DNA of 64,000 nt from a virus: positions 64,001-128,000 of IMG/VR virus record IMGVR_UViG_3300045919_000302; one strand, written 5' to 3'. The translations under genes were made by a program, and so were the position numbers. Under the pieces are notes generated by a model. That model was given only the letters and a program-made list of their open reading frames with translations, was not told where the DNA came from and did not search any database. Each line of letters opens with the position of its first letter. Positions within the stretch are counted from its first letter, which is position 1. Positions 27,885-43,941 of the stretch are shown here, piece by piece.

Positions 27885-30287
27885 TCACCACCTGAACCCA
27901 GGAGGGCTCACAGTCTTCCAGTTTTTGGCCCCGTATTTTTTCTTACGCGACCGGGCATACACCATCGCCATGCGACACCCGCTGTCCACGAGATCCACGA
28001 CCAGCGGTGGCTTTTTGTCCGGCCTGACGCGCAGGATCCGGCCTACCGCCTGGTAGAGCGTCCCTTGGATCGGCGAGGCCATAACCATGGTGTCCAAGCG
28101 ATCGTTGTTGAATCCGACCGCCAAGAGCTGGGTCGTGGCTACGAGCACCTGGGCCTTCTCGGCGATTGCCCGTTCCTTCTTACCGATTTTCCCGTGCATC
28201 ATCCCCACCACAATCCCATGGGGCTTGAGCTGCTTTGTCAGCTCCTTGAACAAGATCTCGACATGCATCACCCGCTCAGACATCACGAGGACATGCCGGC
28301 CACTCAACGCGGCCTTCACCGCGTTGTTGATGATCACCACATTCCGGACCGGGTTGTTCGTCACCGACTTCAAGAACGGGTTCTTCTGACGATCCAAATC
28401 TCCTTCGCCGGCCCAAATATACTTCGTATCCACGAAGTAGACGGTGGGCTCTAGGACCTTGATGTCACCCATGGCTTTCACGATCGTGCCGATCCCATAC
28501 TTGAAGACGTTTTCAGCTCTGTCCTTGCGCTCCAGCGTGCCGGAGAGGCCGAGAAAGTATTTCGGCCGGAACTTGAAGAGCACCTTCTGGAACTCAGTCG
28601 CGCCGACGTAGTGGACCTCGTCGCAAGCGATCAGGCCGAACTCATCGTAAATGCTCTCAGGATAGTCATCCTTCATCGAGAGTGAGTGGAGCATACCGAT
28701 GCAAATGTCGTTACCCTTCACATCGACCGTCGATCCCTGAATAATTCCCAGCGACCAGTTGGGGAAGAAGCGTTTGATCTCCTTGATCCATTGCTCCATC
28801 AGCACCGTCGTGTGGACGACGATCAGGGTCTTCATCCCCATCCTGCGGGCGGTCTCAAGCGCGAGGACGGTTTTACCGCTGTTGTGGGTGACCGTAAAAT
28901 CGCCCATTACATACAGATGATCCCCATCAAGAGAGAAGCCGTAAAAATCGTCCTCAGGAAGACGCTCAACATCAAAAGCCGTCCTGAGCACGCTCTTCTT
29001 CTGGACTCTCTTTCTCGCCCTTTTCCTGGCGAGCCTCACTGGAACGTCAGCTAATTCACCGGAGATGCACACCCGATAGTAGGTGCCTCCGTTCCCATGT
29101 TGATCTCTCTTCTGGCAAGCCTTCATGTAAGCAGCAAAGCCAAGCGATCTGGCCAAGAAAACCACGCCGGATGCAAGCCTTCTGTCTTTCGAGATGTAAT
29201 CGAATGTGCCGTTTGACAAGCTGCCACCAGTGTCGACGATGCCAGCAAGAAGCCCCAGCCTGTCCTCTCGTGAGGAAGTCAGGTAAACACTGGGAATATG
29301 CTTGAATCTGGTGACATTCAAGCGCCGCAGCTTCGACAAGAAAGCGTTGCTCCCTTTCTTACACCCGACAGCCTTCACTGTGACGGCTCGATTGTTCGGC
29401 AACTCCATCTCAACGGAACTCATACCAATCGAATAGATGTACCGATTCCAATCGAAGATCAGCTCCCTATCCATGGAAGTCAACTCTGCCCGAGCAGCGG
29501 TGCCATCGCCAAGCCAGAGGCCCAGAATGTATGGCGGGATCGGCAGCTCTTTCTTCTGAAACTCAACCGGGACACGGTAAAGTTTGTGAACGCTTTTGAA
29601 CGACTTCGAGCGCGACAAGTAGTCAGCGACTGAGATGTTCACGATCGGGTTGTCGCCCAGGTAGTCCTTTCTTGGAGATTTCGATCCGCGAGGGTAACTC
29701 CTCTTCTTCGTCCTCATGAGAGACAGAATGTGACTCTCGTTAACGACGAACGGATCCCCCTTGGTCGGGGCAATCCTGACCATGCGCTGCCTTCCGCGTT
29801 TGAGTTCGAGAACCGTCCTCGGCTTACTATCTGGACCCATGAGCTGGTCACCGACACGCACATCTTCAACACGCCTCACGGAGCCGTCGAACATCAGGAT
29901 TTCGGTTCCTTTGGCGTGACAGCCCATAGTTGCCTCGATGATCGCACCTCCGAACTCGTTCTCCTTCATGGCTGCGATGGCTCTGGAGATCACATCCTCT
30001 TGGCCTTCGCGTGGAGCGATGGGATCCGCCGGCCTCGGCTGATTGGACCCGACGCTGTACTGGAGGACTGCTTTGGCGTCCGGAAATCTCTTCCTAACTA
30101 TCTTGTTGTAGTATCCTCGCGGGACGCAGAGGTGCTGCTCATCTTCAGCCCAGAGCCGAATCGGATCCGGCATCGGATTGAAAGAGGACGTCGAGACGGG
30201 CACGACCGTCAGCTTCTCTTTAATCATCTCACGGGCGGCGTGCGGCAAATCACTTTTTGAGACACTGACAAGACCACGGTATTTCAT
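27885..30287 (-). CDS. superfamily 2 (UvsW/ResIII-like) DExH helicase containing an intein
   Basis: Q motif REGQ; Walker A ATMG|SGKT split by the intein; DEVH; SGT; QAVGRILR. Confidence 0.92.
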   Translation of the reverse strand: MKYRGLVSVSKSDLPHAAREMIKEKLTVVPVSTSSFNPMPDPIRLWAEDEQHLCVPRGYYNKIVRKRFPDAKAVLQYSVGSNQPRPADPIAPREGQEDVISRAIAAMKENEFGGAIIEATMGCHAKGTEILMFDGSVRRVEDVRVGDQLMGPDSKPRTVLELKRGRQRMVRIAPTKGDPFVVNESHILSLMRTKKRSYPRGSKSPRKDYLGDNPIVNISVADYLSRSKSFKSVHKLYRVPVEFQKKELPIPPYILGLWLGDGTAARAELTSMDRELIFDWNRYIYSIGMSSVEMELPNNRAVTVKAVGCKKGSNAFLSKLRRLNVTRFKHIPSVYLTSSREDRLGLLAGIVDTGGSLSNGTFDYISKDRRLASGVVFLARSLGFAAYMKACQKRDQHGNGGTYYRVCISGELADVPVRLARKRARKRVQKKSVLRTAFDVERLPEDDFYGFSLDGDHLYVMGDFTVTHNSGKTVLALETARRMGMKTLIVVHTTVLMEQWIKEIKRFFPNWSLGIIQGSTVDVKGNDICIGMLHSLSMKDDYPESIYDEFGLIACDEVHYVGATEFQKVLFKFRPKYFLGLSGTLERKDRAENVFKYGIGTIVKAMGDIKVLEPTVYFVDTKYIWAGEGDLDRQKNPFLKSVTNNPVRNVVIINNAVKAALSGRHVLVMSERVMHVEILFKELTKQLKPHGIVVGMMHGKIGKKERAIAEKAQVLVATTQLLAVGFNNDRLDTMVMASPIQGTLYQAVGRILRVRPDKKPPLVVDLVDSGCRMAMVYARSRKKKYGAKNWKTVSPPGFRW
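28881..29921 (-). mobile_element. intein (347 aa) with in-frame LAGLIDADG homing endonuclease
   Basis: Starts CHAKGTEILMFDG, block B VNESHIL, ends VTHN before Ser; motifs ILGLWLGDG and LLAGIVDTGG. Confidence 0.95.
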
Positions 30288-40239: not shown

Positions 40240-40814
40240 TTTCCACCTCTGATGATTTCGATGATTTGCGATTCGTGAACCGGTGCGAAGTCCCAGACAT
40301 CCACTCCGACGTTAATCCACTTATCTTTTGTCTTCCACTTCTCGTGGACGTGGCCGTGCAGAATCCAGCCTTCATCCTGAGGTCTAAACTCCTTGTATCT
40401 GACGTCGTAACCCTCAACTTCCACGAACGGCGGCATGTGATGCAAGAGGATAGGAACTCCGTCGATCTCGATCCGGGCTTCGAGCTGCACGGTCTTGAAC
40501 ACGGACAGATACAACTCCATCGCTTGGGCCATCTTGTTGGGCTTCGTTCGACAAGGATGGACCCAGTCGTGGTTGCCGGCGACCAGATGGATCTCGCCAT
40601 TCAGTCGCGGTCCAACCTCTGTGACCCAGTTCTTCCCGAGCGAGAAGTCGCCCAAGTACCAGACGAAGTCGCCTGGCTTCACCCGAGTGTTCCAGCGGTC
40701 AACCAGAATCGCATTCATCTCCTCTTTATCCAGAAATGGGCGATTGCAATACTTGATGACATTTTCGTGACCGAAAAGCTAATGATGGTCAGACGTGTAA
40801 AATCTGTTAACCAT
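40236..40814 (-). pseudogene. calcineurin-like metallophosphoesterase with in-frame TAG at codon 12
   Basis: MVNRFYTSDHH*LFGHENVIKYCNRPF...LGDFS...GNHD...HGHVH...NVGVD; ATG 40814 coupled to the upstream stop. Confidence 0.8.
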
Positions 40815-43800
40815 CGAGCACCTCGCCTTCTACATGTCCGACATGCTTTTTGAGTTGGTCGTTGGTTTTCTCGGTTCCCCAGTCCTTCTGGAGATCATCA
40901 AGGCCGATGCCCTTCTCCATCCACGCCTGCTCTTCGGCGGTGAGCTTCTTGCCTTCAAGCACCTTACGGGCCAACTCAGCCTTCTTTTTAAGGATCCCGA
41001 TGACTTTGGAGTCCCAACGATTGCCAGCAGCCTTGATCCAGTAGACGTTCACCATGTTCTTCTGACCGATACGGTGTGCTCGTGCAGTGGCCTGGGCTTC
41101 ATCGGCAGTATTCCACGGCAGGTCGTTGAAGATCACCTTGTCCGCCCGGGTCAGGGTTGCTCCGACCGCGAGGGATTGACGGGTGGTGCAGAACACCCGC
41201 TTGTCGGTTCCTTCGCGCTGGAACTCGGCCTTGGCCGCTTCGCGGACTTCGTCAGAAAGCTGGCCGTGATGGAGCAGGGAAAGGTCGCCCATGGCTTCGT
41301 GGATCTGTTTGGCAACTTCGACCGAGTCCGAGAATACGAGCATGCTTGAGTCGGAGGATTCGAGCATCTCCTTGATGAACTCGATCGTCGCTCCGGCCTT
41401 GTCGATGGCGATGTCGCTCTTCATCCGGGCGATGTCTTCGAAGTCGATCTTGCCGTCTTCCGGGATGTCGCGGCAGCCTTCGACTTCGAGTTCGATGATC
41501 GAAGTGAGCTTCTCCGGGAGATCCTTCAGGACTTGGGCCTTGGAGGCGGTCTTGTAGAACTCCTGGATCTTGTGCCAGGTGCCGCCGATGGTCGCCATCT
41601 TGAGCGCGGTCTTGGACTCGAAGAAGCCGGGGCGGATCAGCTCCACCTGGGTGAAGAGTTCGTCCTTCTTGTTCTTGATCGCGGTGCCCGAGAGGAGGAT
41701 CTTGTGGGCGAAGAGTGAGGAGACCGAGTGGACGGATTTGGTGATCTTGGCCTTCGGGTTCTTGATCGAGTGACTATTGTGAACCAGTGCTCCGTTTACA
41801 GAGAACGAAGGGTGGCCAGACACTTTGAGATCGTAGTAAAAACCCTGCTCGTTTCCTGGGTAACCTCCAGATTCGTGAACCGTAACACCGTCCACCCTAA
41901 TTCCTTTAACTTCAGATCTTTTTTCTTGTCCTGCTCTCTCCGAGACAAGTGCGACAAGCCGTCCACTTCTACGCACAGCCGGTCCGAGACCAGCGCAAGA
42001 TCCACTTTGTAGTTCGTTGGATATCCCGGAAATCTCCCACCCAAAGACACCGCGTGATTCCATTTCCACGAACGACCGAGGCGTGACAACAACAATCTCT
42101 CCGGTTTCGTCGGCCCGTGGCCGTTCCCGCCCCGAACTGTTGGCTTCCATCCTATTCGTTTCAGAGTCGCCGAGACTTTGGATCGCGTGGCTGCTGAATG
42201 CATGGGATTCTTCAGTCTCATGCGAATAGCCGAATCCGGCCTCGCCTTCCCGGTTAGCGAGTTGCTTATTTTTAAAGCTGTCTTCTTCGTGTAAACCTTT
42301 GCTCGAATAGCAGGTTGCCTCATTCTCCATTTCGCAGAGCAGGAGGTTCCGCAAAAACGCTGCTTTCTGTACTGGTTTGGCAGGAAACTCTTCGCGCAAT
42401 AACTGCACGGCTTCTTCTTGGCTGACAAGGGTGTCTCCTTCTTTTAGGTTTTCAGCAAACACCCACCCACGACTTGTAAGGAAAGGATGATGCGATGAAC
42501 ATGTGACCGTTTGTCCACCGTATCTTAATTCAGTGCGGCTGTCCAATATCTGCGTCCTCTTGGTTCCGAGAACAGTAGATGTACCGGCAGCCGAATAGAC
42601 CTCATCACCGACTTTTATTTGATCAATCCGCACCGGCCCACTTGGGGTATCAATAAGGGTCTCAGGTCCAAAGCACTCGTCGATCACCATCACGTCGAAA
42701 CCGGCGGCCTGGATCGCGGGGAGGAACTTCTCGAAGCTCGCGAAGTTGACGCTGGCGATTTGAACCTGGGAGAGATCCGGCATCCCGTTCTTCTTGAGCG
42801 ACTTCGGGGTCAGCTCAATGCAGCGGGTGAAGTAGCCCGGGAAGAACTTCTTGGCTTCCTGGATCCAGGTCCGGCGAACCACCTTGGGGCAGACCACCAG
42901 GATCCGCTTGTTGTTCATCGCGGCGTAGCAGAGGGAGATGAGGGTCTTACCGAGGCCCATCTCAGCGCCGATCAGGGCGTTGCCGTTGGCGACATTCAGG
43001 AAGCGGACGAAGTCGTTCTGGAAGGGGAACGGGACGATCTCGGGATTGATCATCGCCATCAGCTCCGGGATCGGGGCTTCGGCGGCGGCCTTCTTCATGT
43101 CGCGCTCGACCTGGGCTTCTTCGATACCCTGGAAGAAAAACTTCCAGCTCGGGAGCAACTCGCGGGCCTTGGTGATCGCTTCGAGGGCGAGATCGAGGTT
43201 GTTGGTCAGACGGGCCCAGTCGGAGACCCGGCACTCGACGATCCCGGAGAGCTGGCTCGTTTTGTTTGAGAAGAGGCCATTCAGAACGGTGGAGAACGAG
43301 AACCGGAACTCGAACATGTCGCCCACCTTGCGGCAGATGAAGGCGTTGTTGATCCGCTTCTGGTCGAGGAGGGAGAGAGCCTTCTCCAGAGTGAGTTCGG
43401 CCTCCGGGGTCTTCTCAAACACCGGCACCGGGTTCACGGTGAAGCCCAGGGCCTCTAACTCGGCCTTGTAGCCGGCGAAGTCGAATGAGTCGATGTTCCT
43501 GCCCGGAACGTAGTTACGATCGAGGCCCCGGTCCCACCAAAGGCCGAACTTCTGGTTGACCCGGATGTACCGACGGCGCACCAGGGTGGGGATCGAGCCT
43601 TCGTGAGACATGAGAAGGGCCGCACCCCAGCGGGCGTCAAGCACCTGGAGGACTGGGGTGATCGTCGGGAGCTTGATCTCAACCTTGACTTCAACCCGGA
43701 AGCTCTGGGGGTAGTTCTGCTCGACCGCTTCGCGGCCTTCTTCGCCGAACTGGCCGAGCTGGGTCTTGAGGTACTTCTTGAGGACGTGGGCCATCTCGGT

Positions 43801-43941
43801 GGCATCGCCCCGGACACCCGGCCAGCTGATCCAGTCAGGTTGATTGAAGCCGACCTCGTTCCGCTCCTTGACTTCGTCGATTCCAAACAGGAAGTCGCCC
43901 ATGTGGCAGAGAAGCTGAGCTTGAATCAAGAATTTTTCCAT
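40807..43941 (-). CDS. SNF2/HARP-like helicase containing an intein
   Basis: AEMGLGKT, VVCP, IDE|SH split by the intein, LSGT, GATLT, QATARAHRIGQ. Confidence 0.93.
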   Translation of the reverse strand: MEKFLIQAQLLCHMGDFLFGIDEVKERNEVGFNQPDWISWPGVRGDATEMAHVLKKYLKTQLGQFGEEGREAVEQNYPQSFRVEVKVEIKLPTITPVLQVLDARWGAALLMSHEGSIPTLVRRRYIRVNQKFGLWWDRGLDRNYVPGRNIDSFDFAGYKAELEALGFTVNPVPVFEKTPEAELTLEKALSLLDQKRINNAFICRKVGDMFEFRFSFSTVLNGLFSNKTSQLSGIVECRVSDWARLTNNLDLALEAITKARELLPSWKFFFQGIEEAQVERDMKKAAAEAPIPELMAMINPEIVPFPFQNDFVRFLNVANGNALIGAEMGLGKTLISLCYAAMNNKRILVVCPKVVRRTWIQEAKKFFPGYFTRCIELTPKSLKKNGMPDLSQVQIASVNFASFEKFLPAIQAAGFDVMVIDECFGPETLIDTPSGPVRIDQIKVGDEVYSAAGTSTVLGTKRTQILDSRTELRYGGQTVTCSSHHPFLTSRGWVFAENLKEGDTLVSQEEAVQLLREEFPAKPVQKAAFLRNLLLCEMENEATCYSSKGLHEEDSFKNKQLANREGEAGFGYSHETEESHAFSSHAIQSLGDSETNRMEANSSGRERPRADETGEIVVVTPRSFVEMESRGVFGWEISGISNELQSGSCAGLGPAVRRSGRLVALVSERAGQEKRSEVKGIRVDGVTVHESGGYPGNEQGFYYDLKVSGHPSFSVNGALVHNSHSIKNPKAKITKSVHSVSSLFAHKILLSGTAIKNKKDELFTQVELIRPGFFESKTALKMATIGGTWHKIQEFYKTASKAQVLKDLPEKLTSIIELEVEGCRDIPEDGKIDFEDIARMKSDIAIDKAGATIEFIKEMLESSDSSMLVFSDSVEVAKQIHEAMGDLSLLHHGQLSDEVREAAKAEFQREGTDKRVFCTTRQSLAVGATLTRADKVIFNDLPWNTADEAQATARAHRIGQKNMVNVYWIKAAGNRWDSKVIGILKKKAELARKVLEGKKLTAEEQAWMEKGIGLDDLQKDWGTEKTNDQLKKHVGHVEGEVLDG
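41776..42675 (-). mobile_element. intein (300 aa) at helicase motif II, with alternate-frame endonuclease
   Basis: Starts CFGPETLIDT, block B CSSHHPFLT, block F YYDLKV, ends LVHN before Ser. Confidence 0.95.
41796..42428 (-). CDS. Vsr/DUF559-type endonuclease overprinted in the +1 frame of the intein
   Basis: CSYC..FCGTSC finger, NUMOD3-like basic repeats, PTKPE, VDLA..LCVEVDGLSH, DKKKD..L..LGWTVLRF; SD AAGGAG-N6-TTG. Confidence 0.9.
   Translation of the reverse strand: MSAKKKPCSYCAKSFLPNQYRKQRFCGTSCSAKWRMRQPAIRAKVYTKKTALKISNSLTGKARPDSAIRMRLKNPMHSAATRSKVSATLKRIGWKPTVRGGNGHGPTKPERLLLSRLGRSWKWNHAVSLGGRFPGYPTNYKVDLALVSDRLCVEVDGLSHLSRREQDKKKDLKLKELGWTVLRFTNLEVTQETSRVFTTISKCLATLRSL

Follow-up and report, generated by a model that had tools for sequence, protein, structure and literature searches.

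Out-of-frame and antisense endonuclease genes were described in actinophage inteins in 2025, with an endonuclease VII-like gene in frame 3 and VSR-like and LAGLIDADG genes on the antisense strand (Gosselin, Arsenault and Gogarten; 10.1101/2025.01.02.630785). That paper gives no analysis of ribosome-binding sites (RBSs) (10.1101/2025.01.02.630785). A +2 LAGLIDADG gene in a cyanobacterial dnaX intein was reported in 2026, and one sentence of that report mentions 'putative Shine-Dalgarno motifs' (10.64898/2026.09.14.751524). A hidden HNH gene in the methylase gene of mycobacteriophage ShiLan was found to have no RBS, leaderless initiation at GTG has been proposed for it, and how hidden out-of-frame genes get translated is raised there as an explicit question (PMC11855218). 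In the so-called fractured genes, a free-standing Vsr-like or GIY-YIG endonuclease gene stands between the halves of a split intein, and 6-69 bp at its 3' end are shared with the intein coding part that follows downstream (Dassa et al. 2009, PMC2677866). In this study, we analyzed a window of 64,000 nucleotides (nt), which is the whole stretch from position 64,001 to 128,000 of the IMG/VR virus record IMGVR_UViG_3300045919_000302. On its minus strand, an intein in a SNF2-type helicase gene carries in its +1 frame a gene for a predicted homing endonuclease, and the Shine-Dalgarno (SD) sequence and TTG codon that very likely start this hidden gene are spelled by the codons of an intein splicing motif.

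The motif in question is the N4-type motif that closes the N-terminal splicing lobe in the family alignment. Its codons on the minus strand, 42447-42424, read CTA AAA GAA GGA GAC ACC CTT GTC and encode L499, K500, E501, G502, D503, T504, L505 and V506 in the intein frame. The codons AAA GAA GGA GAC form the SD sequence AAGGAG (42435-42440), the 6-nt spacer ACACCC follows (42429-42434), and CTT GTC supply the TTG (42426-42428). This is exactly the AAGGAG-N6-TTG arrangement which the first-pass annotation of this DNA had read as the opening of an overprinted open reading frame (ORF). The Leu-Lys codons CTA AAA also create a TAA stop in the nuclease frame (42444-42446), 5 codons upstream of the TTG, and the TTG at 42428 is the sole ATG, GTG or TTG between this stop and Cys8, the first cysteine of the nuclease zinc ribbon. 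The site has the features expected of an SD, namely complementarity of at least 4-6 nt to the 3' end of the 16S rRNA located 5-9 nt before an ATG, GTG or TTG, and the predicted energy of the SD:anti-SD duplex is −8.8 kcal/mol. In the phage genome (149 kb, 55% GC), the usual RBS is AGGAG with a 5-7 nt spacer; 70 such sites precede ORFs of 50 amino acids (aa) or more, 10 of which begin with TTG, and the SD in the window matches the RBS style of the phage itself.

The free-standing relatives of the nuclease start 2-4 codons (L106, L120, L159, L160, L194 and L200) or 10-11 codons (L150 and L187) ahead of the first Cys, suggesting that the native N-terminus lies near this Cys and close to the position of the TTG; strong SDs are present in L120, L150, L194 and L200. 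Considering that the TTG is the only start before Cys8 and that SD-start pairs are in excess throughout the family, as described below, the SD and TTG are very likely the real start of the nuclease gene, as had been claimed. We discarded the ATG found farther inside the gene, at nuclease codon 36, since a start there would remove the four invariant zinc-ribbon Cys residues. We also rejected the idea that RNA structure hides the RBS, the fold of 131 nt around the site being no better than that of shuffled sequences (z −0.05).

A search of IMG/VR with the single nuclease protein gave no matches, and an alignment query was needed to retrieve relatives; scans of IMG/VR, metagenomes and GTDB genomes yielded 245 loci. 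Among the 199 full-length relatives, 188 encode the nuclease +1 to a long enclosing frame that is open, and none has it in the other frame. An open enclosing frame is missing from the remaining 11, which mostly look free-standing. The 154 unique intein sequences are all located at the helicase DE|C position and share the blocks CF..GT, GD.V, CT.NHPFFT and W..A..L..GD. A tblastn search of phage records placed the nuclease under the 'helicase' coding sequences (CDSs) of Vibrio phages CP-T1, 159E43 (159E43-1b in its record) and 1.194.O and of Pseudomonas phage MR14, always in the +1 frame of the annotated CDS. In the GenBank records of these phages (OZ196825.1, MT104474.1, NC_019457.1 and MG592563.1; L001-L004), only the helicase CDS is annotated, and the intein and the +1 nuclease are unmarked. 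Annotation pipelines thus miss at least some such genes, since the nuclease is unannotated in four phage records, including that of CP-T1.

A few relatives depart from this layout. In L154 (681-1445), the intein frame ends 4 codons past the first Cys of the nuclease, and the N-terminal Hint part (…RRGWVKAGELLSTDE…) extends up to the nuclease ATG; by its sequence, this locus has the look of a 'fractured gene', a version of the family with a split intein. Three others (L027, L088 and L145) have an internal stop in the nuclease frame and an open intein frame, and their nucleases may be decaying genes or shorter variants.

The frequency of SD-start pairs expected by chance was obtained by synonymous reshuffling of the intein-frame codons, counting an SD of −5 kcal/mol or better, which is an arbitrary threshold, and a start no more than 12 codons from the first Cys. 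Such pairs are present in 73 of the 154 unique loci, compared with 28.8 expected. The excess persists when the loci are clustered, with 54.7 against 20.5 expected for 102 clusters at 60% identity and 14.6 against 5.1 for 31 clusters at 50% identity. It is also specific to the frame: 73 pairs serve the nuclease frame, 19 the intein frame, and only 2-4 the third frame. The pair is clearly conserved across the family beyond the demands of the overlapping protein sequence, and it is this frame-specific excess among the relatives that gives the case in the window its significance.

The silent sites of the N4 motif point in the same direction. It had been proposed that Glu-Gly-Asp codons readily create GGAG, and the Gly-Asp codons (GGA GAY) indeed do so. 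It had also been suggested to check whether the GGA codon is conserved together with an NTG in the +1 frame, and the outcome was positive: the N4 Gly is GGA in 22 of the 29 loci that use N4 as the SD, with the +1 NTG located 4-16 nt past the first base of the D codon. Two internal controls were available. In the loci with G-D/E, the N4 Gly is GGA in 39 of 69; the N2 Gly-Asp within these inteins has GGA in 30 of 120, and the share of GGA among all other Gly codons is 23%; in the class with the RBS in the linker, which is small (6 informative loci), the N4 Gly is GGA in only 1 of 6. Within the window-type lineages, which have the motif G-[DE]-x-L-[VA], 7 of 7 retain GGA and 6 of 8 retain CTT (background 0.22, p 0.002). 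The full GGAG-N6-TTG is found in the window and in L005, L006, L014, L088 and L095, whose nucleases are only 45-50% identical, a distance at which silent sites should be saturated.

From these sequence comparisons, we consider it likely that translation of the nuclease is initiated independently, by the SD, at the TTG on the helicase mRNA. Ribosomes that start from the helicase ATG would traverse the intein frame and yield a self-splicing precursor, and the internal AAGGAG (42440-42435) would separately recruit 30S subunits for initiation at the TTG at 42428 in the +1 frame, giving a free zinc-ribbon/Vsr-like homing endonuclease of 210 aa. This nuclease would cut intein-less alleles of the helicase gene and so spread the intein. 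The SD and the start would need no DNA of their own, being provided by synonymous choice within N4, where Gly as GGA gives GGAG and Leu as CTT before Val gives TTG. Splicing and homing are likewise predicted steps, and it is more likely that the RBS was fitted into the codons at hand after the gene had been captured.

Several points weigh against this proposal. The site is part of an ORF that is itself translated, and initiation there would have to contend with elongating ribosomes; TTG, moreover, is a weak start codon. For the window alone, the result is not beyond chance, as reshuffling gives an SD with a start 17% of the time (probability 0.17). The z-score of the excess among the 154 loci (10.3) overstates independence because the loci share descent, and the hosts of the metagenomic relatives, and hence the anti-SD sequences on which the SD counts depend, may differ. 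Furthermore, 44 of the 154 unique loci have no SD of −5 kcal/mol or better before a start.

The chance result for the single locus and the SD-less relatives also speak for the likeliest alternative, in which AAGGAG-N6-TTG is a by-product of the Lys-Glu-Gly-Asp...Leu-Val codons and the nuclease is a relic, is translated without an SD, or is made from a separate transcript. GGA is also frequent (18 of 35) in relatives that have no SD-start pair within 12 codons of the Cys, and the hidden HNH gene with its proposed leaderless initiation offers a precedent for a gene without an RBS (PMC11855218). However, the nuclease ORF in the window is intact, with every invariant zinc-ribbon and catalytic residue present; the codon choice at silent sites is conserved among distant lineages, and the excess of SD-start pairs is specific to the nuclease frame. 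No promoter-like site was found upstream of the TTG; the one sequence resembling a sigma-70 promoter is downstream of it, and we rejected a promoter of the nuclease's own within the gene. We therefore regard the by-product explanation as improbable and retain initiation at the embedded SD and TTG.

A programmed +1 frameshift, in which an SD-like element before CUU would act as in prfB and yield a fusion of N-extein, N-intein, and nuclease, is very unlikely. The arrangement GGAG, 5 nt, CTT G does loosely resemble the SD-N3-CUU-U of prfB, and the element is kept in six window-type lineages. However, a prfB-type site combines a slippery CUU-U with an A-site codon that is a stop or hungry and with an SD located 3 nt upstream, and this combination was not found here: the codon after CTT is GTC, a sense codon and neither a stop nor a rare or hungry codon, the SD spacing is 5 nt instead of 3, and UUG would re-pair poorly with the tRNA reading CUU. 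The TAA in the alternative frame would restrict the shift to 5 codons. Most relatives have an ATG made from TAT, CAT or GAT followed by G, which is not slippery. The relatives conserve an initiation codon in the +1 frame and no slippery site. In L003 and L014, stops in the alternative frame directly precede the start and leave no room for a fusion product.

Pausing of ribosomes at SD-like sequences has been proposed and is contested. That the SD-like sequence serves the intein frame, by holding the ribosome after the N-terminal lobe for co-translational folding and with an incidental TTG, has in its favor that the motif falls precisely where the N-terminal Hint lobe ends, but it is most improbable given the coupling of the SD to a start codon in the +1 frame (73 loci compared with 2-4 in the third frame), the absence of GGA enrichment at N4 in the small linker-start class, and the RNA near the site, which, as noted above, is not unusually structured.

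The nuclease gene opened by the TTG encodes 210 aa and extends over 41796-42428 to a TAA stop at 41796-41798. It is composed of an N-terminal CxxC...CxxxC zinc ribbon (Cys 8, 11, 26 and 30; 42339-42407), a conserved NPM...GGNG...PT middle part, and a C-terminal DUF559 domain (41817-42014) that matches PF04480 at 4.2e-14 (52.8 bits, cut-off 20.6). The family profile matches the DUF559 structure 3hrl at 9.2e-12. An AlphaFold model built on 68 relatives and starting from the TTG has a mean pLDDT of 92.8, and it is confident from residue 1, the first 10 residues averaging 90. Foldseek matched this model to 3hrl (TM 0.73), to I-Bth0305I (3r3p), and to Vsr (1cw0/1vsr), with E-values of only about 3e-3; the match to the I-Bth0305I catalytic domain has a TM of 0.76 on the target, a probability of 1.00, and 25% identity. 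Of the active-site residues, D143, H160 and D167 do not vary in the 68 sequences, and E154 and D156 show a conservation of 90% or more. Judging from sequence and model, the hidden gene encodes a zinc-ribbon plus DUF559/Vsr-like (EDxHD) protein that is a predicted homing endonuclease.

Among nine lineages of the window clade, the +1 frame is 50% identical, and the intein frame read from this DNA is only 28% identical (BLOSUM 338 versus 55). The far better conservation of the +1 frame indicates that the nuclease frame is under protein-level selection in the middle of the intein, while the intein frame across the nuclease region is an acidic, Ser/Gly-rich linker that need only remain open. The 3' end of the nuclease gene overlaps the C-terminal splicing blocks of the intein over about 17 codons (41796-41847), where two conserved protein segments share one DNA stretch. 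In the relatives, the nuclease stop is mostly 3-25 codons ahead of the end of the intein.

The host gene is a SNF2-type helicase ORF of 1044 aa (40807-43941, minus strand; Pfam SNF2-rel_dom 1.3e-13 and Helicase_C 3.5e-13), and its exteins (42676-43941 and 40807-41775) flank the intein, the interruption following the DE of motif II. The intein (41776-42675) comprises 300 aa, from C423 to N722, and is followed by Ser723. The Cys nucleophile C423 is its first residue, directly after the extein DE, and a Cys occupies the same column of the intein alignment in 151 of 154 relatives. Block B reads C-S-S-H-H-P-F-L-T and aligns to the family consensus CT.NHPFFT. Hint-family Pfam matches span residues 423-518, with PT-HINT (8.8e-07) and Hint_2 (1.3e-06) passing their cut-offs; the match to the Intein_splicing profile falls below its cut-off. 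The C-terminus reads VHN|SH, and joining of the exteins would regenerate the motif II sequence DESH (DE|SH). By these sequence features, the element is a class 1 intein of the Hint fold, and it is predicted to splice.

The first-pass annotation had further stated that L-x-x-G-D-x-[LIV] ends the N-terminal splicing region of most inteins. This is borne out within the family, in which the N4 columns have G in 87 of the 154 loci and D/E in 115, but it is not evident in a second intein in the window. That intein, an in-frame LAGLIDADG type, is in the Walker A of a second helicase (27885-30287, minus strand), and its N-terminal lobe shows no clear L-x-x-G-D-x-[LIV] ending; the motif is therefore not universal.

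Other members of the family have solved the problem of the start differently. Besides the window type, the motif G-D-x-[LIV]-Y-G/E/D gives GGAG-N9-ATG, and in a Vibrio/Pseudomonas clade, D-E-V-L...Y-D (GAY GAG GTT) gives GAGGT with an ATG 5-8 nt later. In 25 loci, the linker after N4 has its own AGGAG and ATG. Two further clades appear to start within the N-terminal splicing domain, with the +1 frame open for 40-80 codons upstream. In the first (L007, L015, L017, L028, L166 and L167), the candidate start is about 44 codons before the first Cys, where R-E-V...Y-A gives GAGG-N6-ATG (GTG in L017); in the second (L020, L021, L024, L035 and L169), it is about 55 codons before, where G-x-D-[HY]-V gives GGAG-N6-ATG. 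These upstream-start clades (L007, L015-L028 and others), which lack a start close to the Cys, at first appeared to be counter-evidence, and tentatively we suggest that they carry conserved SD and ATG pairs of their own, although chance hits are possible over such long open stretches. Their nucleases may have an N-terminal extension that overprints the splicing blocks. The SD-less loci, for example L008, L037, L039, L040, L059, L064 and L073, have an ATG 2-3 codons before the first Cys. Either their hosts rarely use SDs or they initiate in a different mode, in which case initiation in the family is not always SD-led.

These alternatives bear on two earlier proposals about the origin of the site. 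The first was that the SD-like codons predispose inteins to capture a free-standing endonuclease gene exactly at N4. The region after N4 is reported as the insertion site of intein endonuclease domains generally (PMC6801210), and other clades have their RBS in the linker or 44-55 codons upstream; we therefore consider the N4 codons to be one solution and not the cause of the location. The second was that the weak TTG might limit a toxic nuclease, for which we found no support. TTG is confined to loci in which the intein has Leu/Val followed by Val/Ala (xTT Gxx), being dictated by Leu-Val in the window, and ATG is used in 32 of the 42 N4-embedded loci, wherever the intein has Tyr, His or Asp before a codon starting with G.

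A broader generalization is conceivable, although we think it rather unlikely to hold as a whole: Hint turn motifs rich in Gly-Asp, Glu-Val, and Tyr/His/Leu-Val may be intrinsically prone to form an SD and start for the +1 frame, and one codon device, with GGA-GAN or GAG-GTN supplying the SD and TAT/CAT/CTT-G the start, may have served at a minimum of four places within this single intein family, namely the N4 motif, the linker, and the sites 44 and 55 codons upstream. If this were true, the RBS of the hidden gene would migrate along the intein over evolutionary time, and a bias toward GGA or GAG at silent sites of splicing motifs could flag unannotated overprinted homing genes generally.

Compared with the described systems, the locus is closest to the non-canonical inteins of actinophages and of cyanobacterial dnaX (10.1101/2025.01.02.630785; 10.64898/2026.09.14.751524). 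As in these, the splicing blocks flank a separate endonuclease ORF, over which the intein frame continues without a stop as an unstructured linker, and the proposed origin is a mini-intein that captured a free-standing homing endonuclease gene. It differs from them in that the nuclease is of the zinc-ribbon/DUF559 type and in the +1 frame of the same strand, that the insertion is in motif II of an SF2 (superfamily 2)/SNF2 helicase, and that the family is found in phages and prophages. The modelled catalytic domain has the fold of I-Bth0305I, an EDxHD/Vsr-like homing endonuclease (PDB 3R3P, PMC3239194). However, the gene for that enzyme resides in a recA group I intron (PMC3239194), the sequence similarity is weak (E 0.45), and the N-terminal DNA-binding part here is a CxxC...CxxxC zinc ribbon. 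With the fractured genes, the locus has in common a Vsr-like homing nuclease tied to the inteins of phage helicase and replication genes. It is, however, neither a fractured gene nor a split intein: the intein frame has no interruption over the length of the nuclease gene, and the intein forms one contiguous piece of which about 630 nt are dual-coding.

The comparison with the HNH gene of ShiLan concerns translation. Both endonucleases are hidden out of frame in a host gene that stays open, but the ShiLan gene is not in an intein and has no detectable RBS, whereas here a canonical SD and start are conserved by codon choice. For one large family of about 150 distinct relatives, this offers a concrete, testable answer to the question of how such genes are translated, namely an ordinary SD and start held by synonymous codon choice, and it provides a natural example of three constraints (the intein protein sequence, an RBS, and a start codon) acting on about 20 nt. 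The dual-coding layout as such is known in kind. What is new is the same-strand +1 variant with a predicted Vsr-like nuclease at helicase motif II, and the embedding of its putative RBS in splicing-motif codons by selection on silent sites.

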